From a virus (Duplodnaviria; Caudoviricetes): a stretch of DNA of 63,921 nucleotides. Location: positions 1-63,921 of the IMG/VR virus record IMGVR_UViG_3300045806_000080. One strand, written 5' to 3'. A model generated the notes under the pieces. That model was not told the DNA's origin, ran no database searches, and saw only the letters and a list, made by a program, of their open reading frames with translations. How positions within the stretch are numbered: the stretch's first letter is position 1; each line of letters starts with the position of its first letter. A program made the position numbers and the translations under genes. Of the stretch, positions 43,340 to 58,503 are shown piece after piece.

Positions 43340-43368
43340 GTCATACCCTCGGATCAGTACACTGACAA
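43340..43368 (-). promoter_or_regulatory. Predicted promoter TTGTCA-N17-TATGAC
   Basis: Motif at 43358-43367. Confidence 0.6.
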
Positions 43369-43551: not shown

Positions 43552-43776
43552 TTAGGTGCGCCAGGTGGCGGCCTTCACAGCCCACATCTGTGCGTCGAGG
43601 GCTCTCATCTTCGCCTCGAAGATGATGTCTGCATGGTCGACGTCGCGCGGCACCATGGCTTCGACGCAGTCGATCACCTCGGCGCACTTGCCCTTGAGGT
43701 GCGCCACCATCCGGTCGCCGGACGGGTTGAAAGTCATGCCGACAAGCCGGCCGCCGTGCGTCAGTTCTTCGCTCAT
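43552..43776 (-). CDS. Acb2/Tad1-like helical hairpin protein (candidate)
   Basis: G..VG.TFNPSG..V..LK...A..ID...A.MWAVKAAT. Confidence 0.5.
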   Translation of the reverse strand: MSEELTHGGRLVGMTFNPSGDRMVAHLKGKCAEVIDCVEAMVPRDVDHADIIFEAKMRALDAQMWAVKAATWRT

Positions 43777-43780
43777 GGTG

Positions 43781-44215: not shown

Positions 44216-44776
44216 GTCAGTGTAGGTAGCACGTCGATCCACATAAGAAAAGGCGGGGGCGGGTAGCGGGGCACCGTTGCGATCGGTCCTTCTTTGATCT
44301 ACCGGCGTCCGGCTGCTGATCCTAGTCGGCCCGCAGGAGGCTCACGGTTTGTTCGCGAGCACTGAAAATCGTTTACGGGTGAACAGCGAACAACGCAACA
44401 CCTCGGACGTCCGCTCACTAAATAAACCCGTGCGACGTATCCGCGAAACGTGTTGTGTTGTCAGCGCCTTACGTCTGTCAGTGAAATCACCTACACCGCA
44501 GAAAAAGGACCAGGGGCCGTTTACGTAAACGGCCCCTGGCCAAGGTGGCCCTCGGCCCAGCATGCGGATCAGCGACATGCCCAGCTCTGTGAGGGCGACG
44601 GGCCGATATAGCACCAGACGCCCCCTCACAACAGTGCGTCAGGCTATCAGTGGCACATATGCTAGAGTCTAATTTCAAGACTTTGTATTGTATCCGTGGG
44701 GAAATTAGCCAAAATTTCATATGGGACCATGGACCCACCCACCCCTATTGAAATCTTTCCCCCCCTCGGCCCCCTG

Positions 44777-44851
44777 CCTCCCCAATAAAAGAATGCTTCT
44801 CTATAGTAGCCCTCCCCAATAAAAGAATGCTTCTCTATAGTAGCCCTCCCC
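44777..44851. repeat. 34-bp tandem repeat (2.2 copies)
   Basis: CCTCCCCAATAAAAGAATGCTTCTCTATAGTAGC twice, then CCTCCCC. Confidence 0.95.
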
Positions 44852-44992
44852 TGCCCTATGCGCCCGGCGTGCGCGCTAGGCGTCCCGATTAACGCGTTAA
44901 TCGAAGCCGGCAAGTCAGGGGAAATAGACCGCGAGACATGCTAATCTTGTTTTGTCAATCGGGATGGCCCGGTTGCTTCATTGGAGTGTGTC

Positions 44993-45745
44993 ATGACTGC
45001 TATCAATCTCTCGACGTTCGCCCCTGTGTCTTTGGACAAGGCTTTGGAATTGGTTCTCGACACGGCTCGCAATGAACAGACGTTTGCCGACGCGTCGCGC
45101 GGCGCTTTGAAGGCCGCGATCGCTTTCCTCAATGTTCCTCAGTGCGAGAAAGACGCGACTGTGTCGGCCGAAGACGAACAGCGCCTTTCGCCGATCTTTG
45201 ACGAATACATGACTGGCCGTCTCATGGGCGGATGCGGCATTGAGGAAAGCGCCGCGCGCTTGCAGTTGAGCTTGCAGCCGTATTTCTTCGCCGCGCCGGA
45301 AAAGAACAGCGACAAAAACCGGACCGAACGGGCGCAACGCGTGCTCAACTCCGCTCGCGTCACGCTTTCCCGCATCCGTGCGGCGTTCAACATTCCCGCT
45401 ATGAAGACGTCTCGCAAGCCGCGTCCAGAAGGAAACGCGACGCACGCCAAACCCGAGGATTTGGCGCACGGTTCCAGCCTCCCGACTTCGATTGCGTCGG
45501 CCACGGTTCCCCACGTCAAGACCATTGGCGACGCGAACGACTGGTTGAAAGACCTTGACGTCAAGGTCAACGACTTCGAACGCGTGAACGCCAAGGTCAT
45601 CATCGGCGACGCTGGCGAAGTGTTGCGGGAAACGTTCGCCGCTTTCCACGCTGGCATTGCCAAGGCTCGCGCGATCATGAGCGATCCGAGGGCAGCGCAG
45701 ATTGCGGCGCTGCAAGCGCAACTGGCCAAGTTGATGACCGCGTAA
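44993..45745 (+). CDS. Isolated early protein of unknown function
   Basis: GGAG RBS; extended -10 TGCTAATCT upstream; two terminators downstream. Confidence 0.75.
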   Translation: MTAINLSTFAPVSLDKALELVLDTARNEQTFADASRGALKAAIAFLNVPQCEKDATVSAEDEQRLSPIFDEYMTGRLMGGCGIEESAARLQLSLQPYFFAAPEKNSDKNRTERAQRVLNSARVTLSRIRAAFNIPAMKTSRKPRPEGNATHAKPEDLAHGSSLPTSIASATVPHVKTIGDANDWLKDLDVKVNDFERVNAKVIIGDAGEVLRETFAAFHAGIAKARAIMSDPRAAQIAALQAQLAKLMTA

Positions 45746-45762
45746 TCCAAACTGACGAAACT

Positions 45763-45790
45763 AAGGCCGCTCTTGCGAGCGGCCTTTTTT
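45763..45790 (+). terminator. Intrinsic terminator 1
   Basis: AAGGCCGCTC-ttgc-GAGCGGCCTTTTTT. Confidence 0.9.
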
Positions 45791-45804
45791 ATTGCCTTTG
45801 ACAT

Positions 45805-45836
45805 AGCCGTCAGCCGCGAGGCTTGGCGGCTTTTTT
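45805..45836 (+). terminator. Intrinsic terminator 2
   Basis: AGCCGTCAGCC-gcga-GGCTTGGCGGCT-TTTTT. Confidence 0.85.
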
Positions 45837-46021
45837 GTGCGCTTTGCAGGTTCGATTAACGCGTTAATCCGGCCGTAGCTCATAACCCAACGATATCAAT
45901 TGCAGCGCGCCCGAGCTAGTCCCCGTTAGCTCATGACACCAATGAAATCAAGCGTCGCAGTAGTTGGCGATCATACGCGTAGCCGGCGTTGCTCGTGCTC
46001 CTACCAGCCAAGTGCATGATA

Positions 46022-46221
46022 TCGTAACCAATAAGTTACCTGATACACTTATATATATGTTTTGACAATATACATATCCCCGTCAGGTAACTTTTGAGCC
46101 TTGGCCACTTATTACAACACTCCTGCCGTATCCCCCCTAAACACCTTATCCTATTCTCCATGGGGGGACTTGTATGTTGGAAAACGACCCATAAGTTAAT
46201 CAGGTAACTTATTGGTTACGA
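46022..46221. repeat. 23-bp perfect inverted repeat around an AT-rich core (candidate origin)
   Basis: TCGTAACCAATAAGTTACCTGAT at 46022-46044; reverse complement at 46199-46221. Confidence 0.85.
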
Positions 46222-46386
46222 CATCAACGCCTTGCGCGTATGACGCATCCGCTGTGTGCTGAAATAAACTAGCTCGTTCTCGCTAAGTGCAGCGTTTGCA
46301 CTTGCGGCGCGATTTCCCCTGAGAAATCAATGTCAGTGTCCAGAGCTAACGTCGCTCGATTAGCGCGTTAACGCACTGACACCCCC

Positions 46387-46415
46387 TTGACGTACACTGA
46401 CGATGGGTCTATGTC
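46387..46415 (+). promoter_or_regulatory. Promoter TTGACG-N17-TATGTC within a cluster of four CACTGAC motifs
   Basis: Motif copies at 46331, 46373, 46393, 46412. Confidence 0.65.
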
Positions 46416-46446
46416 AGTGCAATCAACCGGATAGGAGCACGAGCAA

Positions 46447-47106
46447 GTGAGCGAGGACAGGCAGCACTCCCGGTACGCCGGGCCAGATAGGCACACATGG
46501 CTCAAGACGGGCGAGCGCGTCCATAAGGGCCAGCGATGGTTCGTCGTCACGCCAGCCTACAAGCCCACGACAGTGACATGGACCCGCGGGGATCAGGCGT
46601 GGGCCGTGTCGATGGACTTCTTCGTGGAGCGTGTGCAGCCGCTCAACCAAGCGCGCCTCGTGTCTCTGGCGAAGCTGAGGCGCGGCCGGCTCGGGCTGGA
46701 GGCGAACGCCGAGCCAGAGACAGAGGCCGAGCTGTGCAACAGGCTGCTGCAAAGCCTGTTCCGTAACCCGAGCAACCAGCGCCTCCAGCGCCTGTTCGCG
46801 TTCATCGAGCAGCAGGATCACTTCGGCTGGTCGGATACCTGGGAGACGCCATCCATCGAGGCAGCGTCTCTGCCCATGCGCTGGTTGTCCGCGTGGCACA
46901 ACGACAACCGCCGCGGTGCCCAAGGCACGCAGGGCGTGGGGGCGTTCTCGCAGAGGGCGTATGACCACCTCCGAGCAGACGCCAACCGCGCCGGGCGGGC
47001 GGAGCTTGGCCTTGAGACGCGGGAGTTGCGCCGCATCTACACGGCCGGCTGCCCTTGCGCGTATTGCAAAGCACAGGCGCGCACGCTGATGGCTGAGGCA
47101 GCGTAA
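46447..47106 (+). CDS. Hypothetical protein (candidate regulator)
   Basis: AGGAG RBS; C-terminal CPCAYC. Confidence 0.65.
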   Translation: MSEDRQHSRYAGPDRHTWLKTGERVHKGQRWFVVTPAYKPTTVTWTRGDQAWAVSMDFFVERVQPLNQARLVSLAKLRRGRLGLEANAEPETEAELCNRLLQSLFRNPSNQRLQRLFAFIEQQDHFGWSDTWETPSIEAASLPMRWLSAWHNDNRRGAQGTQGVGAFSQRAYDHLRADANRAGRAELGLETRELRRIYTAGCPCAYCKAQARTLMAEAA

Positions 47107-47154
47107 TCTGCAAATCCTATCAGGTCCGTGACTGGTTTGATCCACATCCCGGAC

Positions 47155-47183
47155 TTGACTTATCCCCTTCCCTGTGCTATTAT
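47155..47183 (+). promoter_or_regulatory. Strong sigma70-type early promoter
   Basis: TTGACT-N17-TATTAT. Confidence 0.85.
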
Positions 47184-47270
47184 ACAATCTACCGGAGGCC
47201 CTGACCTACAGGGCGACGGCAACTAGGCTCGATTAACACGTTAATCAGAGCCCAAACGAAGGATCAGAAC

Positions 47271-47537
47271 ATGGGCAAGCCGATGACAACCGAAGACAAG
47301 CGTTGGCTCAAGGTCATGGCGCAGCGCGAAATCACGAGCAGCCGGAATAACCCGCTCTCCGGCGAGTTCTTCCTCAACTCGGTTGACCCCGATGGCTACA
47401 AGGAGCGCGTCGAGTGCCTCACCCTCGTGGAGGCGTTGCACTGCTTGGACGGCATGCTCTTTGAGCAGGACCCGTACATGGGCTGCATCAGCAACGCGTG
47501 GGGCGACGCCGCCAAGGGCATCCTCAATCATCGTTGA
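47271..47537 (+). CDS. Early hypothetical protein
   Basis: Palindrome + AGGATCAG leader. Confidence 0.7.
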   Translation: MGKPMTTEDKRWLKVMAQREITSSRNNPLSGEFFLNSVDPDGYKERVECLTLVEALHCLDGMLFEQDPYMGCISNAWGDAAKGILNHR

Positions 47538-47565
47538 TTAACACGTTAATCCAAGGACACACACG

Positions 47566-47928
47566 ATGGCCAAGCCCATCAACCTCAGCCTCATCGCTCA
47601 GCGCATGCGCCACGACGCGGCGGCCGAGAAGCAGCGCGAGCTGGATGCCTTCCGTCTTCGCCGCGATCGCGACGAGGCGTACCGCATGGAGCGTGAGCGG
47701 GCGATCGCTGGCGAGTGCTTCCTCCGCGCCATCAAGAGCGCCGAGTTCCCGACCACGCACACGGCGGCCAGCCGTGCGCTCCCCAAGCACGAGCGGCCAC
47801 ACCCGAGCGACGCCGGACAGCGTGCGTTCGTGTCGAACTGCATTACCGCGGAAGACTGTGCCCAGACGCGGCACCCCAAGAACATCCGCGCACACCGCGT
47901 CGGCTCCCCCGTCTGGGGCCTCGCCTGA
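47566..47928 (+). CDS. Early hypothetical protein
   Basis: Palindrome + AAGGA leader. Confidence 0.65.
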   Translation: MAKPINLSLIAQRMRHDAAAEKQRELDAFRLRRDRDEAYRMERERAIAGECFLRAIKSAEFPTTHTAASRALPKHERPHPSDAGQRAFVSNCITAEDCAQTRHPKNIRAHRVGSPVWGLA

Positions 47929-48104
47929 GCAACCAGCTAATCCAAGGAGTTTGTCATGCTTATCGTCCTGTTTCATCGCCTCCTCAGCGGCTCGCGTCAG
48001 GTGCAGTACGATGCGCATCTTTGGGCCTACTTGTATGGCACGAGCATCTAGCTGACTGGCAACCAATCGGGATTAACCCGTTAATCGAGAGAAGGATCAG
48101 CACC

Positions 48105-48287
48105 ATGTTGAATACGCAGACGCAGCCCAAGGGCTTCACCTACCGCATCGACTATTCGTGCGGCGAGGCGCGCAACCAGACGCGCTTCATCCACGGCGCG
48201 GTGTGCGCCAAGCACGCTCGCCTCATGTTCCGCGACATCCCGTGGATGACGCTGGCGATCATCAACTCGAACAAGCGCGTTGGCTAA
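48105..48287 (+). CDS. Early hypothetical protein
   Basis: Palindrome + AGGATCAG leader. Confidence 0.65.
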   Translation: MLNTQTQPKGFTYRIDYSCGEARNQTRFIHGAVCAKHARLMFRDIPWMTLAIINSNKRVG

Positions 48288-48298
48288 GGAGAACCACC

Positions 48299-48445
48299 AT
48301 GAGCGTAGCACAGTCGAGAGGCGCGGCCCGCAGGATGCGCGATCGGTACGGACGCGGGTCATTCCGCACCATCGGCGACATCGTCGCCAGCGACCGGCGC
48401 AAGGCCGCGCGCGCCGCCAGCATATCGAAGCCGAAGAAGGGCTGA
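48299..48445 (+). CDS. Small basic protein
   Basis: AAGGAG RBS; Arg/Lys-rich. Confidence 0.55.
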   Translation: MSVAQSRGAARRMRDRYGRGSFRTIGDIVASDRRKAARAASISKPKKG

Positions 48446-48533
48446 GCTGACCAGATGCCGCGAGGGACGCGCGGCATCGAGTGAGCCCAAGCATGGCTCC
48501 CCGGATTAACGGGTTAATCGAGAGGATCAGATC

Positions 48534-48926
48534 ATGGGACAGCGACATCACAACGCGATCGGCATCGCCGGGGGCGCGTGCAACCCGCTCGCCATATCAA
48601 ACGCAATCGCTCGTGGATGCCACGAGATCATGGACAACCCGGCGGGCTACGCAGGCACCGACGCCATCACCAGCGACCCGGCGATCAAGCTGATGACGAG
48701 CCAGCTCGCCTACATCACAGGCGTCTGGTCCGGCGTGTCGAACTTCTCGAAGGGCGCGGACTTCCGCGACTGCCTGACGGCGTGTCGCAACGAGGTCGCG
48801 AGCGAGCCGACCAAGAGCGACCTCATGCATGAGGCGGCCGAGGCGCGAGGCGTGCCGGTCGTGGACATCAGGATGATCCAGTTCGACGGCGCGGACCTGA
48901 GTGGCTTCCCGACGATCGACCCGTGA
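48534..48926 (+). CDS. Early hypothetical protein
   Basis: Palindrome + AGGATCAG leader; GACNP...DPA...QLA. Confidence 0.7.
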   Translation: MGQRHHNAIGIAGGACNPLAISNAIARGCHEIMDNPAGYAGTDAITSDPAIKLMTSQLAYITGVWSGVSNFSKGADFRDCLTACRNEVASEPTKSDLMHEAAEARGVPVVDIRMIQFDGADLSGFPTIDP

Positions 48927-48976
48927 CGTCAACCGCAGTACACTGACATCAAGTCAGGACTGGAAGGATCAGCACC

Positions 48977-49504
48977 ATGAAACGATACCTCCTTGCCGCC
49001 ACCATCCTCGCGGCCCTCTCGACGCCGAGCGCGGCCTCGCTCGTCAGCTTCACGTTCGCCGGGCCGTTCGGCTCGGGCTCGATCAACGGACGCGTGGTCG
49101 TGGATGTCGAGGGCGGGCTCGCCACGTCAGGCACCGCCACCATGCAGGGCTGGGGCATCGACGGCACGCAGACGCTGGCGCTCGTGACGCCGGCCGGCGC
49201 GGTCTACCGCTCGGGCAACGGCACCGACATCTGGGACGGCGACAACCGCGTGCCGATCACATGGGGCGGCATCGTGTTCGGAACCAACGCGGCCACGTCC
49301 GGGTCCGGTGGTTACAACCTCGGCATATGGGCCGAGACGCCGGCCACCTACCGCGGCTTCGCGTCTGGACCTGGCCTCTGGTCGTACACTGGCGAGCTGT
49401 CGGTCAACCCGATCCCCGAGCTGTCGACATGGGCGATGTTCGCCATCGGCGCGGCGGCGATCGCGTTCACCGGCTATCGCAAGCCCGCGCGCTACGCCCT
49501 CTGA
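48977..49504 (+). CDS. PEP-CTERM (PEPxxWA-type) exported surface protein
   Basis: Signal peptide; C-terminal IPELSTWAM + TM helix + basic tail GYRK. Confidence 0.85.
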   Translation: MKRYLLAATILAALSTPSAASLVSFTFAGPFGSGSINGRVVVDVEGGLATSGTATMQGWGIDGTQTLALVTPAGAVYRSGNGTDIWDGDNRVPITWGGIVFGTNAATSGSGGYNLGIWAETPATYRGFASGPGLWSYTGELSVNPIPELSTWAMFAIGAAAIAFTGYRKPARYAL

Positions 49505-49583
49505 AGGGACACTCGCATGCGGCGGAACCCCGAGCGCGACCTGTACGCAGGCGCGCTGGCGAGCGCCATGGAGGCCATTCGCC

Positions 49584-49772
49584 ATGCCAACTACTACGAC
49601 AAACGCGCTTGCGCACTGGCGCGACCGCGTTCCGGCTCCGGGGCAAAAGCCCCGTCCGTGCCCGTATTGCGGACATAGCTACATCATGCCCTGCAACGAG
49701 CAGCAACACGCTGCTTGCCAGAACTTCACCCACAAACGCGTCCCGATTAACGCGTTAATCAAGGAGACTTAG
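49584..49772 (+). CDS. Small Zn-finger-like protein
   Basis: GGAGG upstream; CPYC...C...C. Confidence 0.5.
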   Translation: MPTTTTNALAHWRDRVPAPGQKPRPCPYCGHSYIMPCNEQQHAACQNFTHKRVPINALIKET

Positions 49773-49773
49773 T

Positions 49774-49905
49774 ATGTTCATCGTCGTCACCAACCGCGCC
49801 GATGGCTCGGTCTACGGCCCGTTCGACACGCTCACCGCGGCCGAGAACTACGCTCACAGTCACTGTGTCGGCTGCTGCTGGCACGTCGCCATGCTGACCA
49901 AGTAG
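49774..49905 (+). CDS. Small hypothetical protein
   Basis: Palindrome + AAGGAG; YGPF.T...AE.YA. Confidence 0.6.
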   Translation: MFIVVTNRADGSVYGPFDTLTAAENYAHSHCVGCCWHVAMLTK

Positions 49906-49914
49906 GGGGCTGGC

Positions 49915-50235
49915 GTGGACCATCTGTTCAATTGCTGCACGGGCCTGGGCGGGGCGGGCATGGACCATCTGTTCAACTGCTGCACTGACGGGGCCGAGCC
50001 TGACTGGTCTACCTACAAGTCGCTGGAGGTCGGTGGCTGTGTGACTGAGCGCGAGCCCAACGGCGACACGTTCACGGTCGGCGGCAAGGACGACGACGAG
50101 GCCGAGTTCTGGACGGTCTACGGCCGGTTCGCCGATGGCGACTGCGAGGCCATCACGGATTGCAAGACGCGTCAGATCGCCGACCTCGTCCTGTCGGCGT
50201 TCACGATCGTTTCCCGTCTCAAGGCGGAGGTTTGA
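49915..50235 (+). CDS. Hypothetical protein with duplicated start segment
   Basis: MDHLFNCCT twice; AEFWTVYGR...EAITD. Confidence 0.65.
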   Translation: MDHLFNCCTGLGGAGMDHLFNCCTDGAEPDWSTYKSLEVGGCVTEREPNGDTFTVGGKDDDEAEFWTVYGRFADGDCEAITDCKTRQIADLVLSAFTIVSRLKAEV

Positions 50236-50237
50236 TC

Positions 50238-50429
50238 ATGGTCAAGACAACGAGAGCGCAGCGCGTGGCGCTGTTCAGGCTCTGGGAGCGCAAGGACAGC
50301 CGGCGGCCCGACGAGACCTACTGCCGGTTCAGGCGGCGCGTGCAGCCTGAGTTCTGCGGCAAGGCCATCATGATCGAGTGGGCCGGCATGTGGATCGGGA
50401 TCGAGCCGGACGGATACGCGCACAGCTAG
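50238..50429 (+). CDS. Conserved small phage protein
   Basis: GGAGG RBS; ends MWIGIEPDGYAHS. Confidence 0.7.
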   Translation: MVKTTRAQRVALFRLWERKDSRRPDETYCRFRRRVQPEFCGKAIMIEWAGMWIGIEPDGYAHS

Positions 50430-50439
50430 GGAGGGTCGG

Positions 50440-50673
50440 ATGACACGAGCCGAACGTCGACATCATCGCGGGCGCTTGCTGGTCAAGCGCAGGGGCTACG
50501 CGGTCGCCAAGGACGACCCGACACCCAAGCGCCTGGGCAAACTGGCGCGCACGGCGACGCCCTGCTCCTGCGAGATGTGCCGCAACCAGCGGGCGAACGA
50601 AGGCCCGACGCTCGGCGAGCGTCGCTTCAACTGCGAGCCATTGAAGGTGCCCGAGGTCTGGTTCGATGAGTGA
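50440..50673 (+). CDS. Small basic Cys-motif protein
   Basis: TPCSCEMCRNQR. Confidence 0.65.
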   Translation: MTRAERRHHRGRLLVKRRGYAVAKDDPTPKRLGKLARTATPCSCEMCRNQRANEGPTLGERRFNCEPLKVPEVWFDE

Positions 50674-51025
50674 CACGGTCACGAGCGAGATGCGCGTGAT
50701 GCTGCTGCTGCGGCTGTATGGGCGGGCGATCGCCCGTCTGACCGGCCGCAGCGCTGACGCTCAGTGGGTCGATTACTGGACCATCGGCGACAACTGTGTG
50801 TCGAACGCGGTGCTCGGCAGGCTCGTGGAGAAGGGCCTCGCCCACCGTGTGTGGGTGTCGACGAACGCTGGGCGCAACCAGTACGCCGAGTTCGTCTTCG
50901 GGAAGCAACCAAGAAAGCGGAGAGCGTCATGCAAGACGACCCCACCTATGACATCTGCCACCAGCGCAAGAAGGGCTTCCGCGTCTACGTCCGGCGCGAC
51001 CTGCGCGACCGCATCCACGTCGTGA
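50666..51025 (+). CDS. Hypothetical protein
   Basis: Coupled ORF; WTIG...V...L.RL.EKGL. Confidence 0.55.
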   Translation: MSDTVTSEMRVMLLLRLYGRAIARLTGRSADAQWVDYWTIGDNCVSNAVLGRLVEKGLAHRVWVSTNAGRNQYAEFVFGKQPRKRRASCKTTPPMTSATSARRASASTSGATCATASTS

Positions 51026-51106
51026 CGCCGAGCACGCTCAACGCGTGGGTGATCGGCGGCGCGAAGCCTGCAACCTCGAAGGGATTGTAACCATGAGTAA
51101 TTCGTC

Positions 51107-51322
51107 ATGAGCGGCGACAGCGAGTGGCGCTGCCGCTCGTGCGGCACGATCTGGATCGCCGACCACCAGCAGCTCGTCTGCCGTGTGTGCGGTGACGAGA
51201 AGGTCGCGCTTGCAGAGCGGCCGACAGCGCCCCGTCGCAAGCATCCCAACATCTGCTTCGGCGACATCATCCTCGGCGGCCTCGCGCCGCCAGCCAGCAA
51301 CAGCAAGACATTGGAGAGATAG
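51107..51322 (+). CDS. Zn-ribbon protein
   Basis: CRSC...CRVC. Confidence 0.55.
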   Translation: MSGDSEWRCRSCGTIWIADHQQLVCRVCGDEKVALAERPTAPRRKHPNICFGDIILGGLAPPASNSKTLER

Positions 51323-52048
51323 ATGCGAAACGATATGTGGTGGGCCTCGGCCTCGACGATGAACCAAGCGGTCGACCGCGGGCTCAACGCCTACCTCGGA
51401 AGCCTCGGCTTCCCGGACGCGAAGGTCCTGTTCATGGACGAGCTGCCGCCCCCCGACGCCTACTGGCGCGGCGCGCTCAAGGCCAGCTACGAGTTCCTCA
51501 AGACCCATAAGCTCGGCGACCACATCGCCGCGCCTCGCTCGTGGCGGCAGGCGTTCGGCACCGGCCAGATGATGGAGCGGACCGATGTCCCCTCGTCACT
51601 GGTCGGGCTCCTGGCTGAGTTCTACGCGTTCAACGCGCGAACTACTGCGACAAAACCCTGCAACCCACACGACGACCGCACGATCACGATCGGTCAACTC
51701 AAGGGCGTCGCTGCCGGCTTGGTGAACGACGGCGACCCGTTGGACGGCATCGAACTGTACGACGGCACCAACGAGTATATCCGAGGCATGTCCGAACTGA
51801 TCGGTCGGTCGCTGCTGGACCTGCTCGGCGTCGGCGACGGCACGGGCGAGAACGCGAAGCTGATCGCGGCCGAGATTGCCGCCAAGTTCGAGCCCGAGCC
51901 CAAGCCCGTCAAGACGACGATCACCGCGACCGTGACGATGCCGTTCTTCGGCACGACGGCCGACGCTCAGACGTGGGCCGAGAACCACACGATCTTCGAG
52001 ATGCTCGATGCGAGGGGCGTCAACGTGGACGGACCGAACATCGCCTGA
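51323..52048 (+). CDS. Hypothetical (possibly mosaic) protein
   Basis: GGAGA RBS; stop codon abuts a palindrome. Confidence 0.65.
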   Translation: MRNDMWWASASTMNQAVDRGLNAYLGSLGFPDAKVLFMDELPPPDAYWRGALKASYEFLKTHKLGDHIAAPRSWRQAFGTGQMMERTDVPSSLVGLLAEFYAFNARTTATKPCNPHDDRTITIGQLKGVAAGLVNDGDPLDGIELYDGTNEYIRGMSELIGRSLLDLLGVGDGTGENAKLIAAEIAAKFEPEPKPVKTTITATVTMPFFGTTADAQTWAENHTIFEMLDARGVNVDGPNIA

Positions 52049-52156
52049 ATTAACCCGTTAATCGGGGACGGAGCCGAGACGCAAAGCGCAGGCTCCGTAG
52101 ATAAGCCCTCGAAACACTCGGGCTTATCTCGCTCCACTTCGATAAGGATCAGAACT

Positions 52157-52675
52157 ATGTGGAATAGCTATACCGACACCTCCGCTTGGCGGGGCGTGAA
52201 CGACTATCAGCGCGCGTTTGAACGCTGGCAGAAGGCCCCACAGTGGCGCGGCGATGAGAAGTCCGACTTCACCCCGCGCAAGGTCGAGCGCAACAGCTCG
52301 AAGCGCGAGTGGACCCGACGCGGCACTGGCACCGCCGAGCTGACATACGTCTTCATCGACCGGACCCGCTGGCCCGAGCTGCTCAACATCCGCACGTTCT
52401 ACCCGGACGCCGACGAGCGCCTCCTGTGCTACGGGCGGCCGGTCACGAGCCGGTACTCTCGCGACCCCCGCCCGAACTTCGGGTCGGGAGGGTGGGAGAA
52501 AGTCCCCCCGCTCACGCTGCCCGAGCGATCAGCGCGCCAGGCCGGGCGCATTATCGAGGCCATGCGGCTCGCGCTCTACAAGGCGCACGACTGCATCGTG
52601 ACCGAGACCCTGCCCCACTACCAGAGCTGGTCGCATCTGCGGACGGTGGCTGAGGCCAACCGGAAGCTGTCGTGA
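52157..52675 (+). CDS. Hypothetical protein
   Basis: AGGATCAG leader. Confidence 0.65.
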   Translation: MWNSYTDTSAWRGVNDYQRAFERWQKAPQWRGDEKSDFTPRKVERNSSKREWTRRGTGTAELTYVFIDRTRWPELLNIRTFYPDADERLLCYGRPVTSRYSRDPRPNFGSGGWEKVPPLTLPERSARQAGRIIEAMRLALYKAHDCIVTETLPHYQSWSHLRTVAEANRKLS

Positions 52676-52935
52676 CCGACGAGCCCTACGTCGTCGGCTG
52701 GGACCACGACGAGATCGTCTCCGAGATGGAGGCGATGATCCTGTTCCGCCGGCACAAGCAGACAGCGTGGGTCGGCCACTGGACGCTCGGCGGCCGGGTG
52801 ATCAGCCACGAGCTGCTGGCGGGCATGCTCATAAAGGGCCTCATCGACCGCTTCCGAGACGACAGCTTCAGCTTCGAGCGTCGCATTAACCCGAAATACG
52901 ACAACGCAGGAGGCAACTATGCCGCGAGTGATTGA
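52672..52935 (+). CDS. Hypothetical protein
   Basis: Coupled ORF; WTLGG..IS..L...LIKGLI. Confidence 0.55.
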   Translation: MTDEPYVVGWDHDEIVSEMEAMILFRRHKQTAWVGHWTLGGRVISHELLAGMLIKGLIDRFRDDSFSFERRINPKYDNAGGNYAASD

Positions 52936-53080
52936 GAAGACCGTGTTCAAGTTCGACAAGCTGAGCAAGCGCGCCAAAGAGAAGGCGCGTGACTGGTATC
53001 GGAACGCGTCGTGCCAGGACTGGGAGCCGAACCTCCAGGAGTTCGACGACTGCGCCACGAGTACGAGTTGGCTCAATTAA
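52919..53080 (+). pseudogene. Probably truncated conserved phage gene
   Basis: AGGAGG RBS; MPRVIEKTVFKFDKLSKRAKEKARDWYR; stop codon lies inside a palindrome after 53 aa. Confidence 0.5.
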
Positions 53081-53115
53081 CACGTTAATCCAACGAAAAG
53101 AGAAGGATCAGCATC

Positions 53116-54213
53116 ATGGCTAAGGCGATCATCACCACTGGCGAGCCCACCGTCAACATCCCGCAACTCAAGCGGATCATCCGCGACGACATCATCGAGG
53201 ACAACGACGTCGGGTTCTTCTACGGCGAGGCCGGCATCGGCAAGACCTACGCCATCCGGCAGGCGTGCGAAGATGCTGGCGCGTTCCTCTGCGAGATCAG
53301 GCTCGGGCAGTACGACAGCGTCGACCTCCGCGGCTTCCCAGGCGTCGATGCGCTGAACAACACGACCTGCTGGTATCCTCCCAAGACGCTGCCGATCGTG
53401 GGCACGCCGGGCTGGCCGACCGACAAGCCGATCGTCATCTTCTACGACGAGGCGACCAGCGCGACGATGCCGGTCTGGGCCGTCATGTACCAGGCGTTGC
53501 AGGACGGCGGGATCGGCGAGCACAAGTTCATGCCGAACGTCCGTCAGTGCGCGGCTGGCAACCTCGACACTGACCGTGGCGTGGTCAACCGGACGCCGGC
53601 CCCGGTGTCCAACCGCTGCCTCAACTTCCGTGTGGCGCTCGACATCAGCGCGTGGATCAAGTACATGGCCGCGCTCGGCACGCCCCCGCTCTACCTCGCC
53701 TACCACGGCTGGCGCGGCAAGGAGGGCAAGAACATCCTCCTGAGCTGGGACCCGGACGCTGCCGTGCAGCCCAAGTCCTACGGCTCTCCGCGGTCCTGGG
53801 CACGGGCGATCCGCAAGCACGTCAAGTACGCCAACCGCGACCCCGACCACGCGTTCATCGCCATGGCGGCCTCGATCGGCGAGGGGCTGGCGCTCGACTT
53901 CCGGGGCTTCGAGCAGATTTACGAGAAGGTGCTGCGCCCCGAGGACATCATCAAGAACCCGAAGGGCGTCAAGCTGCCCGAGGACGAGAGCCTGATTTAC
54001 GCCACGGCTGTCAGTGTGAGCGGTGCAATGACCTTGACTACGGTCAAGCCACTGCATACGTTTCTCACTCGGCTCGACCCTGAATACTGTATAATGGCCT
54101 GGCAATTGGCTGTGGCTCGGGACCCGGCGATCTACATGGCCGACGAGTTCCTCGACGTCAGCCAGCGTTACAAGGCGATCTTCGACGTGGCGACGTCCAG
54201 GAGGGCTACGTGA
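53116..54213 (+). CDS. MoxR/dynein-related AAA+ ATPase
   Basis: GEAGIGKT, IFYDE, AAGN, NR, SPRSW. Confidence 0.9.
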   Translation: MAKAIITTGEPTVNIPQLKRIIRDDIIEDNDVGFFYGEAGIGKTYAIRQACEDAGAFLCEIRLGQYDSVDLRGFPGVDALNNTTCWYPPKTLPIVGTPGWPTDKPIVIFYDEATSATMPVWAVMYQALQDGGIGEHKFMPNVRQCAAGNLDTDRGVVNRTPAPVSNRCLNFRVALDISAWIKYMAALGTPPLYLAYHGWRGKEGKNILLSWDPDAAVQPKSYGSPRSWARAIRKHVKYANRDPDHAFIAMAASIGEGLALDFRGFEQIYEKVLRPEDIIKNPKGVKLPEDESLIYATAVSVSGAMTLTTVKPLHTFLTRLDPEYCIMAWQLAVARDPAIYMADEFLDVSQRYKAIFDVATSRRAT

Positions 54214-54716
54214 TAGCGATAGGACAACGCTTCGGCCGCCTCGTTACCGACGCTGAGGTGCGGCTGCCGGTAGGCTCTGGGCGGCAGATGCGGCTCCACT
54301 ACGTGTGCCTTTGCGATTGCGGTGCAGTGACAAAGCCGATAATGTCCTCGAACCTAACTTCGGGGCGTACGATGAGTTGCGGCTGCCGGCATGGCGAGGC
54401 TGTGCGTGAGAATGGGTTGGCGAACAAGCGGCACGGCCACTCTTGCGGACAGGCGCTATCTCCAACCTACTCCAGTTGGAGGTCGATGCGCCATCGCTGC
54501 GCCAACCCCAGATCGCCTGACTTCCCGGACTACGGGGGGCGAGGCATCACAGTGTGCGAGCGGTGGCGCTCGTTCGATGACTTTCTGGCCGACATGGGAG
54601 AGCGGCCAGCAGGCACGACCATAGACCGTGCCGAGAATGACGAGGGCTACCGCCCCGGCAACTGCCGATGGGCGACGCCATTAGAGCAGCGCCACAACCA
54701 ACGGCGCTGCCAATAG
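54210..54716 (+). CDS. HNH homing endonuclease-like protein
   Basis: GQRFGRL...C.CDCG...SCGC...YGGRGI.VCERW...TIDR...Y.P.NCRWAT. Confidence 0.88.
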   Translation: MIAIGQRFGRLVTDAEVRLPVGSGRQMRLHYVCLCDCGAVTKPIMSSNLTSGRTMSCGCRHGEAVRENGLANKRHGHSCGQALSPTYSSWRSMRHRCANPRSPDFPDYGGRGITVCERWRSFDDFLADMGERPAGTTIDRAENDEGYRPGNCRWATPLEQRHNQRRCQ

Positions 54717-54784
54717 TTTCTCCCCGAGGTAAGTGGGAGGAAGGCCGAGCGATCAAGCCCGGTCAGTGAGAGGATGGGACAGGA

Positions 54785-55075
54785 ATGACACAGACAGGAA
54801 CTGAGACGGGCAAAAGCAAGAAGAAACCCGTTCGCAGGTCTGTGAGGCAAATGGCGCTCCCGGAGATCAGCGAGAAGATCATGGAGCGGAGCTATCAACG
54901 CTCCGGCGTGGTCGCTGGCGGAACTCTGTTGAGCAGCGGAGCCAAGCAGGCAACAGTGGCGTTCACGCCCCCGACCTTCCGCAAACTGAAACTGGCGGCC
55001 GACCAGAACGGCGTGAGCCTTTCTGAGATGGTGCGCCAGTGTGTGGACATGGCCCTGAACAAAAAGGGCGAGTGA
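54785..55075 (+). CDS. Ribbon-helix-helix DNA-binding protein
   Basis: ATVAF.....KLK.AA...GVSLSEMVR..V. Confidence 0.7.
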   Translation: MTQTGTETGKSKKKPVRRSVRQMALPEISEKIMERSYQRSGVVAGGTLLSSGAKQATVAFTPPTFRKLKLAADQNGVSLSEMVRQCVDMALNKKGE

Positions 55076-55083
55076 CCCCTCCC

Positions 55084-55131
55084 CGTCCCCGGCTCGAACA
55101 ATAAACACAACGAGCCGGGGCGGGATTTATT
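55084..55131 (+). terminator. Hairpin/terminator after RHH gene
   Basis: CCCCGGCTCG...CGAGCCGGGG followed by ATTTATT. Confidence 0.55.
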
Positions 55132-55147
55132 AGGATCAGACCTCCCC

Positions 55148-55387
55148 ATGCCCAAGCGATTAAGCAAGCGCATCCAGCGCATACGGCTGGCTGCGATCAT
55201 GGGTATTGTGCGCCTTGAGCCCTACACTGACGCCTGCATCCGCGACCGATACACCATTAACGGCGTCGAGGTGACGGCGCAGCTCCGCTGGCTGTGCGAA
55301 CGCGACTACCTGCACATCCGAGAGTGGGAGCCACGATCCGGCAAGGGCGGCCCCGTGCGGTTCGATCCAGGCAGGAGCCCGCCATGA
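55148..55387 (+). CDS. Small protein, apparent paralog 1
   Basis: LAAIMG...Y.ING.EVT..L..L. Confidence 0.6.
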   Translation: MPKRLSKRIQRIRLAAIMGIVRLEPYTDACIRDRYTINGVEVTAQLRWLCERDYLHIREWEPRSGKGGPVRFDPGRSPP

Positions 55388-55650
55388 TCGAACTACCCGA
55401 CGATCCGTTCACGCGGATCGACCGAGGGATACTGGCTGCGCTCGCGTTCGGCGGCCTTACGATCGGCTTCGCTCCCGGCGACGACGGCTTCATCCGCGAG
55501 GAGGGCATCGTCTTCCGCGGCAAGAACGTCACCAATGAGATCGGCCGGCTGATCATCCTGATCAACGGCGGCTACGGCGACAAGGAAGCCTTGCCCAAGT
55601 TGCGTGCGCTGATGGGGCGGATCGACGCTCACCCGTTCAACAACCTCTGA
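55384..55650 (+). CDS. Small protein, apparent paralog 2
   Basis: LAALAFG...FRG.NVT..I.RL. Confidence 0.6.
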   Translation: MIELPDDPFTRIDRGILAALAFGGLTIGFAPGDDGFIREEGIVFRGKNVTNEIGRLIILINGGYGDKEALPKLRALMGRIDAHPFNNL

Positions 55651-55657
55651 GGTTCCC

Positions 55658-55888
55658 ATGGACCTGACCGACCGCGAGCGCCGCGTCTACACGGCGGCGC
55701 TGATGGGGCTCGTGCGCACGATGCTCGACCGCAGCTACCTGTCGTTCGTGATCGGTGATGACGACGTGACCGAGACGTTTGATCGGCTGCGCTTCACCCA
55801 CAGAATTTTGACATGGGAGAGCACCGAAGACTGTCGGGTCATCTGCAAACCGCGAGACCCTGACGCTTACTGGACCCGGAAGGACTAA
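55658..55888 (+). CDS. Small protein, apparent paralog 3
   Basis: TAALMG...F.IG.DDVT..F.RL. Confidence 0.6.
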   Translation: MDLTDRERRVYTAALMGLVRTMLDRSYLSFVIGDDDVTETFDRLRFTHRILTWESTEDCRVICKPRDPDAYWTRKD

Positions 55889-55892
55889 GACA

Positions 55893-57068
55893 ATGGCTAG
55901 TCAAGCAATCACCAAGATGCAGCAGGCGCGTGGTCGCCTGATCTTGCAGCACGTCTTCTGGGCGGTGCTCGCCCTGAGCCTGCCGATGGTGGAAGACCCC
56001 GGCTGCGGCACGGCGTGGACCGATCACAAGCGGATCGGCTTCGACCCCAAGTTCATCGAGAGCCTGCCGCTCGACGTGGTCCTGTTCGTGATCGCTCACG
56101 AGGTGGCTCACGTCATGTTCCTCCACGCGCTCCGGCGCGGCGACCGGGACCCCATGCTCTGGAACATCGCCTGCGATCACGCGATCAACATCCTGCTCAA
56201 GAAGTGCGGGTTCACGATCTGGTCGAAGGCGTGCTGCGACATGCGCTTCGCCGCCATGAGCGCCGAGCAGATTTACGAGCAGCTCAAGCAGGAGGCCGAG
56301 GCGCGCGGCAAGGGCAAGCCGGGCGACGAAGCCGGCGACGGCAAGGGCGGCACCATGAAGAACGGCAAGTACGTTCCCGCGCCTGGAGAGATGGACGGCA
56401 TCGGCGGCGACCTCAAGTACGTACCGATGACGCCGGAGGAGGTCCGGGAGGCCGAGCGCGACACCAAGGGCAAGGTCTCGCAGGCTGCGACGCAGGCGAA
56501 GATGTGTGGCCAGCTTCCGCAGGAGATCGCCCAGGCCGTGGGTGAGCTGCTCTCCCCGCCGCAGCCCTGGTATCGCGTGTTCGCCGAGTACATGCGCCAG
56601 GTCGTCTACGAGGACGAGAGCTGGCAGCGCCGCAACCGGCGGTACTCCGCCTACTTCATGCCCGGCCGCCAGAACTACAAGATGGGCGAGCTGGTCATCA
56701 TCGGCGACACTTCGGGCTCGATGTGCTCGCCGGACGTCTACGCCCGTATGTCAGTTGAAATCCAAGGCGTGGTAGAACAGTTGAAGCCCACCCGCACCCG
56801 CGTGATCTGGGCCGACGACACCGACTGCTCGTCGCAGCAAGTGTTCGAGTACGGCGACACCATCAAGATCGCTCCTGTCGGAGGGGGTGGTACTGACATG
56901 CGAAAGAGCTTAAAGTACGTCGAGCAGTACGAGCCGCTCGTCGTCCTGCTCATAACAGACACCTACACACCGTGGCCTGCAAGCGTCCCGTACCCGCTGA
57001 TCTGCGCGAGTACAACAGACCAGGCCATGCCAGCCAACCTCGGTCGAACGGTCCACCTCCCACGATGA
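55893..57068 (+). CDS. DUF2201-like metallopeptidase + VWA domain protein
   Basis: HEVAH zinc motif, WNIACD.AIN, MIDAS DTSGS, GGGGTD, ITD. Confidence 0.9.
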   Translation: MASQAITKMQQARGRLILQHVFWAVLALSLPMVEDPGCGTAWTDHKRIGFDPKFIESLPLDVVLFVIAHEVAHVMFLHALRRGDRDPMLWNIACDHAINILLKKCGFTIWSKACCDMRFAAMSAEQIYEQLKQEAEARGKGKPGDEAGDGKGGTMKNGKYVPAPGEMDGIGGDLKYVPMTPEEVREAERDTKGKVSQAATQAKMCGQLPQEIAQAVGELLSPPQPWYRVFAEYMRQVVYEDESWQRRNRRYSAYFMPGRQNYKMGELVIIGDTSGSMCSPDVYARMSVEIQGVVEQLKPTRTRVIWADDTDCSSQQVFEYGDTIKIAPVGGGGTDMRKSLKYVEQYEPLVVLLITDTYTPWPASVPYPLICASTTDQAMPANLGRTVHLPR

Positions 57069-57604
57069 CACCCTACAGAGAAGCCCTTGAGGCCGAAATA
57101 GGCCGGTGTTATGGCCGGCTTACAGTTATGCTGCTTGTCAAGCACGGCAAGCGGTGGGCCGCCATGTGTGCCTGTTCCTGTGGCGGCACAGCGGGGCCGA
57201 CGTTGTTCAAGCACCTGCGATCCGGTCACTCGTTCAGTTGCGGTTGCGCACAGCGCGAAGCCGTGAAGGAGACCGGCGAGACTAGCAGGCATGGCGGCGC
57301 GCGTCGCGCGGGCAGGTCACCTACCTACCGGGCATGGCAGGCAATGCGTGGCAGGTGCCGCAGCCGCGACCAACATAAGCGGCAATACTATCTCGACCGC
57401 GGTGTCACTGTCTGTGAGCGATGGGACACCTTCGAGAACTTCCGTGCCGACATGGGTGAGCCCCCGGCCGGGTTCACTTTGGACCGGATCGACCCTGACA
57501 AAGGCTACTCACCTGAGAACTGCCGGTGGGCAACTTGGGTAGAGCAACGAAGCAACCAGCGCCGGAACTACTCCGACGCGTCCAAAGCGCGATTAACGCG
57601 TTAA
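57065..57604 (+). CDS. HNH homing endonuclease-like protein
   Basis: YGRLTV..C.CSCG..SCGC..VCERW..TLDRID..KGY.PENCRWAT. Confidence 0.88.
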   Translation: MTPYREALEAEIGRCYGRLTVMLLVKHGKRWAAMCACSCGGTAGPTLFKHLRSGHSFSCGCAQREAVKETGETSRHGGARRAGRSPTYRAWQAMRGRCRSRDQHKRQYYLDRGVTVCERWDTFENFRADMGEPPAGFTLDRIDPDKGYSPENCRWATWVEQRSNQRRNYSDASKARLTR

Positions 57605-57621
57605 TCGAGAGGATCAGAACC

Positions 57622-58503
57622 ATGTCCGTAACTCAGTCCTGCATGCTCGTCAACCTGCGCATCGGCGCATGGGCCGGTCGCCGGCTCGATCGCTCGATCA
57701 GCGAGGAGATCACCGAGCAGAAGAACGCCACCGGGGACGCTCTCCGGGTCAACAAGCACCTCGTGCCCAAGGAGACGCTGGCGGCGGTCGTGAGCGCGTC
57801 CAACGCGCTGCGTGGCCACTTCTACGAGGCCACCCTGCCCTGGGCCGACCAGGGCGCGAGGGTCATCACCCGCGTCGGCTACCGCCCCTTCCTGGAGAAG
57901 CATGAGAAGCTCATGCGCAACTTCCAGGACGCGGCCACCCACCTCGTGGAGGTCGACTACCCGGCGGCGCGGGCGCAGGCCGAGTTCCGTATGGGCGACG
58001 CCTTCAACGAGGAGGACTACCCGGCCCCGTGGGAGCTGCGGGAGAAGTTCTACGTCAAGCTCGACATCGACCCGATCCCGGAGGGCAAGGACTTCCGCGT
58101 CGACATCTCGAAGGAGGACGCGGCGGCGGTCAAGCAGCAGATCGAGGAACGGCTGCGTGGCCGTGTGCAGGCCGCGGCGAAGGACGTCTGGGGCCGGCTG
58201 CGCCTCGTCATCGAGCACTATGCCAAGACGATGGCGAACACCGACATCAAGTTCAAGGACGCCACCGTCAGGAACCTCCACGACCTGGTGGAAGCCCTGC
58301 CAGCTCTGAACATCCTTGAGGACCCTGCCCTCGACGCGTTCGCCAAGGACGCGCGCCAGTCGCTCGACTGGTCGGCGAAGGAGATCAGGGACAACCCCGA
58401 GACCCGCAAGGCTGCGGCGGCCGAGGCAGAGGCCGTGCTCGATCGCATGAGCGGCTTCATGAACGCCTTCAGCGGCATGCAGCAGCTCAAGGAGGCGGCG
58501 TGA
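57622..58503 (+). CDS. DUF3150-like helical protein
   Basis: LV.L.I..W...R.D...TLPW...G...F...DYP...LP.LN; accompanies the AAA/VWA pair. Confidence 0.65.
   Translation: MSVTQSCMLVNLRIGAWAGRRLDRSISEEITEQKNATGDALRVNKHLVPKETLAAVVSASNALRGHFYEATLPWADQGARVITRVGYRPFLEKHEKLMRNFQDAATHLVEVDYPAARAQAEFRMGDAFNEEDYPAPWELREKFYVKLDIDPIPEGKDFRVDISKEDAAAVKQQIEERLRGRVQAAAKDVWGRLRLVIEHYAKTMANTDIKFKDATVRNLHDLVEALPALNILEDPALDAFAKDARQSLDWSAKEIRDNPETRKAAAAEAEAVLDRMSGFMNAFSGMQQLKEAA

Follow-up and report, generated by a model that had tools for sequence, protein, structure and literature searches.

Here we describe a short palindrome that punctuates the early genes of an uncultured tailed phage. The stretch of DNA that we analysed, called the window throughout, is an entire virus record (IMGVR_UViG_3300045806_000080), complete at 63,921 bp, and its genes fall into two divergent modules. 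The minus-strand genes at 10254–44242 form the virion and lysis module, with TerL, a head-tail adaptor, a major head protein, a 2256-aa protein, a GH108 lysin and an integrase. The plus-strand genes run from 44.9 kb, across the end of the record, to 10.2 kb, and code for a MoxR-like ATPase, a DUF2201 metallopeptidase/VWA protein, a DUF3150-like protein and two HNH endonucleases, and further for a ParB-like protein, a DNA polymerase A, an SNF2 helicase and a DUF927 protein. The palindrome, (G/A)ATTAAC-NN-GTTAATC, is present in 10 copies spanning 44887–57606, all of them intergenic or lying over a stop codon, and since the window is the whole record, its restriction to 44.9–57.6 kb holds genome-wide. 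The array is a real, non-random regulatory repeat. Our comparisons show that its architecture is conserved in a family of related phages while the sequence of the site is specific to each lineage, and we tentatively propose, with somewhat less than even confidence, that the palindrome is a duplex-DNA operator for a dimeric, phage-specific regulator, repeated across the early region.

What sets these sites apart from chance? ATTAACNNGTTAAT gives 10 exact matches, all within 44888–57605, and none in 100 dinucleotide-preserving shuffles. Extended by its flanks, the site reads GATTAAC..GTTAATC in eight of the ten copies and AATTAAC..GTTAATC in two (52048 and 53075). The arms are invariant and the central dinucleotide varies (GC four times, AC three times, CC twice and GG once), and the half-site GATTAAC is seen 19 times where 1.33 are expected, 18 of the 19 being inside palindromes and one standing alone at 46195–46201. 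A preliminary description of this DNA, made from the sequence alone, had counted ten copies with fixed arms and a varying centre, found only between 44.9 and 57.6 kb, and the motif scan of the whole record bears it out on each point. It had also mentioned one degenerate copy, without a coordinate; a scan allowing three mismatches returned two extra sites, of which 46358–46373 (GATTAGCGCGTTAACG) is the most plausible match and 47927–47942 is probably due to chance (0.37 expected). The array and its surroundings are laid out as follows.

44887..44902: copy 1, GATTAACGCGTTAATC; 90 nt 5' of the start of g1 (the first early gene) and upstream of the g1 -10 candidate
44942..44947, plus strand: candidate -10 hexamer of g1, TAATCT, which aligns with 'catgcTATTGT' in relatives G016, G017 and G031 and with 'catgcTATAAC' in relative G001
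44993..45745, plus strand: g1, first early gene, 250 aa, of no known family; its product is a candidate palindrome-binding dimer
45763..45786, plus strand: intrinsic terminator after g1, a 10-bp stem followed by TTTTATTG
45812..45831, plus strand: second terminator-like hairpin with a T-run, 22 nt 5' of copy 2
45854..45869: copy 2, directly 3' of the g1 terminators
46195..46201, minus strand: lone half-site GATTAAC, within a long inverted repeat
46358..46373: degenerate copy, GATTAGCGCGTTAACG, with 3 mismatches; 13 nt upstream of TTGACG (46387–46392)-17-TATGTC (46410–46415), ahead of gene 46447
47155..47183, plus strand: sigma70-type promoter match TTGACT-17-TATTAT with a TG, 48 nt upstream of copy 3
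47231..47246: copy 3, 24 nt ahead of the ATG at 47271
47536..47551: copy 4, overlapping the stop codon at 47535–47537 and 14 nt ahead of the ATG at 47566
48071..48086: copy 5, 18 nt ahead of the ATG at 48105
48504..48519: copy 6, 14 nt ahead of the ATG at 48534
49745..49760: copy 7, 13 nt ahead of the ATG at 49774
52048..52063: copy 8, AATTAAC form, overlapping the stop codon at 52046–52048 and 93 nt ahead of the ATG at 52157
53075..53090: copy 9, AATTAAC form, holding the stop codon at 53078–53080 and 25 nt ahead of the MoxR-like ATPase gene (53116–54213)
57591..57606: copy 10, holding the stop codon of an HNH endonuclease gene (56972–57604) and 15 nt ahead of the DUF3150-like gene (57622–58503)

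Seven of the ten copies end 13–25 nt 5' of a start codon, with the ribosome-binding site (RBS) in between; the copies at 44887, 45854 and 52048 are not close to an RBS. The stops at 47537, 52048, 53080 and 57604 do overlap palindrome copies, as the ends of the open reading frames (ORFs) and the sequence confirm, and the palindrome-RBS-ATG unit reported at 48071, 48504 and 57591 is found there, with close variants at 47231 and 53075; an RBS-side motif, GAGAGGATCAG, is common to only three to five of the ten copies. In a promoter scan of 11 sites (the ten copies and 46358), nine were at background, so that the earlier statement that most copies are not beside a recognisable promoter holds; the copy at 47231 has the only strong sigma70-type match upstream (TTGACT-17-TATTAT, 10/12), and the match at 44887 reaches 8/12. 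The genes among which the copies are dispersed are highly variable: between 46447 and 52935, 11 of 14 are without a relative in any genome or locus compared, and Pfam matches number 0/10.

Positions 44000–58000 had no megablast match among phage records. Among cultured phages, the one most closely related is Pseudomonas phage Rollin (TerL 44%), which carries a 4-copy AAGGTAG-N7-CTACCTT cluster in its first 500 bp only and no dispersed array. In IMG/VR the exact 16-mer was found in 99 stretches; among the 84 listed, 83 have a single site and only one has two, and since the 16-mer is nearly always single in the listed contigs, the palindrome sequence of the window is not shared by other viral contigs. 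In the stretch with two (L068, a provirus contig of 49% G+C, with no TerL match to the window), the two exact 16-mers lie 43 nt apart at 8002–8060. The relatives that we compared belong to an uncultured family of phages of 57–66 kb from soil-type metagenomes, and they come from a profile search with the product of 53116–54213, a gene that we label MoxR-like from the Walker A motif in its consensus, in which no family match was found; a single-protein search with the same product in viral contigs returned no relative. The profile search gave 33 loci, with some redundancy (L148 is G001 and L137 is G002, and L120/L121, L128/L145 and L126/L127 are near-identical pairs).

Twenty-three of these 33 loci have an exact palindrome in 4–15 copies in the same early region. 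G001, a 60.8-kb contig whose TerL is 58% identical to that of the window, has 9 copies of TTTGTGACA-NN-TGTCACAAA at 42871–54704, the matching part of its genome, most of them followed by an RBS and an ATG. Among the other loci, L123, L126 and L127 have imperfect dyads, L131 has 6 copies on its whole contig (G015), and L149 and L137 have only 3 and 2, respectively; the search found no array in L129 (G013, with a 2-copy palindrome only), L141, L142 and L151. About 14 palindrome types occur across the lineages, such as TTTGTGACA-NN-TGTCACAAA, GTGTTACA-N3-TGTAACAC, GAGTCAA-N5-TTGACTC and TTGGGACA-N4-TGTCCCAA. Eight whole genomes have most of their copies within a single stretch of ~14–21 kb (3 kb in G022), one copy lying apart in each of G017 and G022, and in the window, G001 and G002 the local palindrome stands ahead of the orthologous MoxR-like gene. 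The architecture of the array is thus conserved, and its site is re-specified by lineage; since the palindrome differs between lineages, the factor that recognises it would be lineage-specific too.

The core of the early/middle region in nearly all the relatives is a conserved trio, formed by the MoxR-like (53116–54213), DUF2201 (55893–57068) and DUF3150-like (57622–58503) genes, present in 32, 31 and 26 of the 33 loci, respectively. The two HNH endonuclease genes of the window (54210–54716 and 56972–57604) are paralogous (phrog_374, 2e-50), with 48% mutual identity; they lie directly 3' of the MoxR-like and DUF2201 genes, and their copy number varies in the relatives, with three in G016. One relative, G022 (L165), has three multi-copy palindromes, AACGCCC-NN-GGGCGTT (9 copies), GGGACA-N3-TGTCCC (7 copies) and TTTGGG-N9-CCCAAA (6 copies).

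Is the site recognised as duplex DNA or in the transcript? An RNA-level element would be an mRNA hairpin beside each RBS, bound by a phage RNA-binding protein or nuclease in translation control, processing or stabilisation. We consider this unlikely, although it has several points on its side. The SAS elements of Cluster K mycobacteriophages lie 3–8 bp ahead of start codons, and a role like the one envisaged here has been suggested for Cluster K SAS/ESAS. The 13–25 nt spacing of seven window copies would suit such an element, as would ~80 distances to the RBS in 11 genomes, most of them 10–35 nt, and some G010 copies even abut the ATG, with GAGG in the loop. However, these genomes are so packed that any intergenic element must be near an RBS. 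The RNA hairpins of the relatives range from -2.4 to -13.7 kcal/mol, with stable stems of -6 to -14 kcal/mol. Three metatranscriptome runs gave short, low-depth contigs of the early region, two of which bridge copy 47231 and one copy 48071, so that these copies may be present in RNA if the contigs are RNA; contigs of RNA libraries may contain DNA and show neither ends nor levels. The start of one run contig falls inside copy 48504, and DNA contigs stop close to copies 45854 and 49745; such contig limits are not interpretable.

Most of what we observed speaks against a role in the transcript. The window hairpin has a free energy of only -1.1 kcal/mol, and of 0.0 in the AATTAAC form of two copies, and its invariant stem and variable loop are the reverse of most RNA-protein recognition. 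When the 210 sites of 23 loci were scored for departures from the consensus, 29 of these left a G·U pair on the sense strand, 30 produced A·C, 10 were compensated and 44 were other; G·U is not favoured over A·C, which gives no indication that pairing in the transcript is under selection. In G010 every copy has a sense-strand A·C mismatch, and the G007 copies have a conserved C·C. In four relatives the predicted g1 promoter is downstream of copy 1, copy 2 comes after two terminators, and an Rfam scan of the window gave chance-level matches only (a tRNA scan of the window gave none). The RNA hairpin processing sites of the preliminary description are thus matched in the closeness of most copies to an RBS, and poorly matched in hairpin strength, strand bias and the position of copy 1. 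A mimic of CRISPR repeats, that is, an RNA anti-CRISPR, was set aside as well, because the conserved unit is no longer than 16 nt, its loop varies and its hairpin is negligible.

In most types, our reading of the consensus rows places a conserved hexamer at about -8 to -3 in each half of the dyad, ~11 bp from centre to centre. This geometry, about one helical turn, is what a dimer of the helix-turn-helix (HTH) type contacts. Taken as a whole, the evidence favours recognition of duplex DNA over an RNA hairpin, and of the three proposals of the preliminary description (operators or roadblocks for a dimeric protein, RNA processing sites and recombination sites), the first fits best with the spacing, the weak hairpin, the lack of strand bias and the position of copy 1; its roadblock part would be a further step.

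The first early gene, g1, is framed by copy 1 on its 5' side and by two terminators and copy 2 on its 3' side. In G001 the order is the same as in the window, with a terminator and then a second palindrome copy, and of 18 g1 genes examined, 13 are followed by T-runs 32–51 nt past the stop codon. Copy 1 is found at about -123 to -90 from the g1 ATG in 6 of these 18 (window, G001, G016, G017, G026 and G031), and in G016, G017, G026 and G031 a TTGACA/TTGACT-17-TAnnnT promoter begins 2–27 nt downstream of it. In these four, copy 1 is thus upstream of the predicted transcription start and cannot act in the g1 mRNA. In G008 two palindrome copies lie 60 nt apart upstream of g1 (the contig's 126-nt terminal duplication discounted). 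In G022, at ~1080–1210, two TTTGGG-N9-CCCAAA copies flank a TTGACA promoter-like site ahead of g1.

Several other features lie around this gene. At 44777–44844 the window has an exact 34-bp tandem duplication that contains AATAAAAGAATGCTTCTCTATAGTAG, and in relatives a similar box, AAGAAT(T/G)(A/C)CT, follows a C-rich run ~60–150 nt upstream of copy 1; it is found in G001, G002, G007, G010, G016, G017, G026 and G031, regardless of palindrome type. The duplication and the box are possibly a conserved promoter, packaging or entry signal. Between the two divergent modules, at 44508–44541, a perfect hairpin with a 15-bp stem and a minus-strand T-run could terminate a short transcript that runs leftward from near copy 1. 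Past copy 2, ~580 bp (45870–46446) have no convincing ORF and an AT-rich core. They include inverted arms of 36 nt (46017–46052 and 46191–46226, 92% complementary) with an inner 26-nt inverted repeat, and at 45989–46003 they have 15 nt that repeat the RBS region of gene 46447 exactly, in inverted orientation; in G001 a hairpin-rich stretch likewise follows copy 2. Might this stretch be a replication origin or a non-coding RNA? A second repeat, TGTCAGTG(T/C)A, has 27 copies on both strands across the genome (for example at 40485, 40509, 42886, 42904, 43367, 44215, 46412 and 59429); several fit a TTGTCA-17-TATnnn promoter-like layout, and others, on the opposite strand, run into an ATG (ACACTGACATGG). 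G003 has a different genome-wide 12-mer, CACAGTTACTAT, with a 9-mer core in up to 16 copies.

We take the g1 product as the best candidate for the protein that binds the palindrome, a lead and not a finding, in which our confidence is low. With an iterated profile the g1 family was detected in all 11 complete genomes that bear an array and in several partial genomes, at times in two copies; in G013, whose palindrome has just 2 copies and which has no array, nothing matched at E up to 10. A basic helix (RT..Q...Y.AAR...SR) is conserved in the protein, and in many cases an RGGAR-like motif comes after it. Its model has a pLDDT of 77.5 over the full length and 88.7 for the central domain, and ends in a C-terminal helical hairpin. 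As a homodimer it was predicted with a score of 0.60, against 0.00 for the best of 3 controls; the mark was reached by 20 of 30 proteins solved as one-chain pairs and by 1 of 23 solved as single chains, counts that apply only roughly here, as an alignment of our own was used; the interface is formed by residues 165–234, with at least 53% contact agreement between runs and a partner pLDDT of at least 58. The family has no Pfam, PHROG or NCBIfam match. A profile comparison with PDB sequences gave CENP-S only (E 0.065), a homology search gave 5 proteins, none of them named, and a search of metagenome contigs gave no relative. In the VIA wide comparison the best Z of 7.1 came from generic helical hairpin matches to the C-terminal part, and the best Z for the central domain was 5.3.

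How would such an array work? In the operator model, the regulator, once made, would occupy all the palindrome copies. Bound at the first early promoter, it would control that promoter; bound between early cistrons, it could block or attenuate RNA polymerase in a stoperator-like manner, and the expression of the early ORFan genes would be shut off or graded. As a by-product, the identical copies would offer short patches of homology for the exchange of early gene cassettes.

Several observations weigh against this model, beginning with its roadblock step, which is pure conjecture. No binding protein was identified among the candidates compared, and a screen of the other G001 proteins for extra conservation among phages of the TGTGAC type found none. 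The g1 product does not covary with the palindrome: identity between g1 products is 15–27% within a palindrome type, against a median of 17.5% for 208 different-type pairs, with the exception of the closely related trio G015/G017/G031 (73–78%). The phyletic negative for g1 is a single genome, G013, and the profile was built from the same genomes. A Foldseek search of the g1 model against PDB and BFVD gave nothing at E 0.001 or better, and the protein has no recognisable DNA-binding fold. In the window the g1 promoter has a poor -35, so the transcription start is placed from the relatives. The spacers, both even and odd (0–7 nt between the arms as written), require flexibility of the dimer, and the short RBS distances and ATG-abutting G010 copies described above would suit an RNA-level role too. 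A more specific form of the model is that g1 and the palindrome are a new regulator-operator pair, quick to change its specificity, in which g1 would be a dimeric DNA binder of unseen fold that is produced first, then binds lineage-specific palindromes at the g1 promoter and ahead of every early ORFan gene, and times the shut-off of the early region, with the operators doubling as swap junctions; we regard this form as rather unlikely.

Could the palindromes instead serve recombination? As their main function, we find it improbable that they are junctions at which early genes are gained, lost or swapped, by homologous exchange or by a site-specific enzyme. The hypervariable genes between the copies would fit, and repeat-mediated exchange is documented for the promoter-early stem-loops (PeSLs) of T4-type phages and proposed for the palindromes of Cluster O mycobacteriophages. 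The most direct observation comes from L126 and L127, which are 97.5% identical: homology ends exactly at palindrome edges (L126 4270 and 5807; L127 4682/4685 and 5044), and what lies between has been replaced or inserted. Four near-identical pairs together give 43 internal block ends, of which 5 fall at palindromes, against 1.0 expected. However, all 5 come from this one pair (~3 events), and the other three pairs give 0 of 23. In DNA run X4, six contig divergences (49204, 53302, 53346, 56023, 56392 and 56820) lie inside genes and not at copies, and no joints were seen. Copies are kept ahead of core genes, such as the MoxR-like ATPase gene in the window, G001 and G002, and the conserved placement at the first promoter argues for regulation. 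Breakpoints in relatives, which had been predicted to map to the palindrome, did so in one pair and not in the other three, which gives recombination sites some support. In our reading, exchange may also take place at the copies, simply because the same sequence recurs there.

The integron-style array suggested in the preliminary description found no support, as no dedicated recombinase co-occurs with the arrays. Integron attC sites are imperfect, of 57–141 bp, and lie beside an integron-type tyrosine recombinase. The sites described here, of 16 bp, are far from attC in size and structure, and the only integrase is ~18 kb away on the other strand. This tyrosine integrase gene is part of the virion/lysis module (25323–26501, minus strand), and G001, G002, G003 and Rollin, the four relatives compared, have no homolog of it. 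From this gene, the phage of the window may be temperate.

Another explanation is that the palindromes are phage-specific promoters, read as duplex or as an extruded hairpin by a phage RNA polymerase or specificity factor, with short leaders downstream. Phage N4 has hairpin promoters that are recognised by a phage-supplied RNA polymerase, and the restriction to the early region, the mostly short and uniform RBS distances and the change of site sequence with lineage would agree with such a system, as would a conserved virion-module protein of 2056–2411 aa in the window, G001 and G003. Nevertheless, we think this very improbable. No RNA polymerase was detected, the large plus-strand ORFs being those of the SNF2 helicase, DUF927 protein and DNA polymerase A, and the giant protein has no Pfam, polymerase-family or PDB sequence match. 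Sigma70-like promoters stand where the early region begins, a perfect palindrome cannot set a direction, and the RNA-library contigs cross copies 47231 and 48071. The giant protein of the window (2256 aa; 26753–33523, minus strand) is 27–30% identical to the relatives' versions and has Gly/Ala-rich ends and an invariant HExxH motif at residues 1089–1093; its nearest Atlas clusters carry LPD39/LPD38 'large polyvalent protein' domains.

Might the sites be borrowed from the host, as binding sites of a transcription factor or nucleoid protein? TGTGA-N6-TCACA is the CRP consensus, and the palindrome type of G001, G008 and L120 has a perfect core of this form, so that a CRP-family protein could be invoked for G001 and G008. 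That no phage binder was identified in the covariation and conservation screens, and that the same palindrome type occurs in phages whose MoxR-like proteins are only 42–53% identical, would fit a host factor. On the other hand, the TGTGAC type spans phages of 55–67% G+C, and thus probably different hosts, and the N5 variants (TGTGA-N7-TCACA, in L125 and L128) break the CRP spacing. The ~14 different palindromes within one phage family and the single-copy state of the window 16-mer in nearly all the listed viral stretches also argue against it, and we rate this explanation as quite improbable.

The preliminary description had named three candidate binders in the window: the products of 54785 and 46447 and the ParB-like protein. 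The first two have relatives in only 7 sources each, the window counted. The ParB-like protein (59678–60466) would load at the palindromes as at parS or OB, spread, and silence or partition the DNA. RK2 KorB operators and sopC/parS are sets of ~10 short palindromes bound by a dimeric HTH protein, with global silencing, and the ~10 copies of a 16-bp palindrome resemble the KorB operators and the sopC repeats of F. The protein does match phrog_1033, 'ParB-like partition protein' (4.6e-31), and weakly a ParB HTH. In contrast with KorB and parS, the gene is missing from most array-bearing relatives: besides G001, G002 and G003, a homolog is found in 1 of 31 relatives' records, and in 1 of the 15 with a completeness of 90% or more. 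In G008, with its 15 palindromes, no ParB-like gene was detected, and there is no ParA-type ATPase in the ORFs scanned. This distribution rules out the ParB-like protein as a universal binder, and we hold its loading at the palindromes to be highly improbable.

Intergenic palindromes in multiple copies are already on record for a few phage clusters, in most cases with no function assigned. What is new here is an architecture spread over a whole uncultured family, with a site that is re-specified in each lineage, that is restricted to the early region and that constantly frames one conserved, uncharacterised first gene. That site sequence changes by lineage while positions stay, and that the first early gene is framed by sites, are handles beyond those of single-cluster descriptions. 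If the binder were found, it would explain the control and shut-off of a fast-changing block of early genes, would show how operator specificity drifts and could supply orthogonal DNA-binding parts; were g1 and the palindrome indeed a pair, the ~14 natural specificities would be a ready-made set of orthogonal operators and binders. The junction behaviour in one pair of relatives links regulation to the turnover of early genes.

How does the array compare with known systems? The array is a member of none of the Cluster O palindrome, stoperator, ESAS/SAS and PeSL systems, and it is comparable to the Cluster O palindromes, the stoperators and the PeSLs. Cluster O mycobacteriophages carry a 17-bp palindrome, 5'-TGTTCGGNNNCCGAACA, of unknown function, for which a dimeric binding protein was suggested and deletions between copies were noted (Cresawn et al. 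2015, PMC4351075). As in the window, it has invariant inverted arms of 7 bp with a short variable centre and many copies per genome; the tens of copies lie in many cases in short one-direction intergenic gaps, mostly not at promoters, and the sequence is absent from other genomes (PMC4351075). The sequence of the Cluster O element is unrelated, and its bearers are siphoviruses of Mycobacterium. Corndog has 34 copies genome-wide, 10–11 of them in coding regions (PMC4351075), whereas the window has 10, in the early region only and none in coding sequence beyond a stop codon; here, moreover, each lineage has its own palindrome, with one copy at the first early promoter.

In Cluster A mycobacteriophages, a phage regulator bound at stoperators stops elongating RNA polymerase (the L5 gp71 type; PMC9283540, PMC6550527). 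As in the window, a single short site is repeated many times in narrow gaps between genes, for the most part not near a promoter. Stoperators measure 13 bp and are asymmetric (PMC3203893), whereas the site described here is a perfect 7-2-7 palindrome and lacks their single orientation. They are bound genome-wide by the monomeric immunity repressor of temperate phages (PMC9283540, PMC6550527), and the array is early-only and symmetric; no repressor-like family was found in the early ORFs scanned, and the integrase lacks homologs in the four relatives compared. The SAS/ESAS of Cluster K are of unknown function, with a consensus that differs between subclusters (Pope et al. 2011, PMC3203893). ESAS, too, is an inverted repeat immediately upstream of an RBS motif and a start codon, in the non-structural half of the genome only; it has imperfect 17-bp arms with a 4–13-bp spacer and is tied to the asymmetric 13-bp SAS (PMC3203893), whereas the arms here are exact, of 7 bp, with a 2-bp spacer. 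The limited sharing of an RBS-side motif among the window copies likewise departs from the ESAS/SAS definition.

PeSLs combine a strong sigma70 promoter with a G/C-rich terminator stem-loop (Arbiol et al. 2010, PMC2839356). A PeSL-like promoter ahead of every copy was rejected by our promoter scan, in which nine of the 11 window sites were at background, and the stem of the window is A/T-rich, has no T-run and is too weak to terminate; the relatives have stable stems, also without T-runs in the G001 contexts shown. Similarly to the array, PeSLs are repeated intergenic motifs directly upstream of ORFan early genes in hyperplastic regions, and end in a Shine-Dalgarno sequence and a start codon (PMC2839356). 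Recombination between PeSL copies shuffles genes (PMC2839356), and here block ends fell at palindromes in one pair of relatives. The array is closest in form to the Cluster O palindrome, in its proposed working to the stoperators, in placement to ESAS/SAS, and in evolutionary behaviour to the PeSLs.

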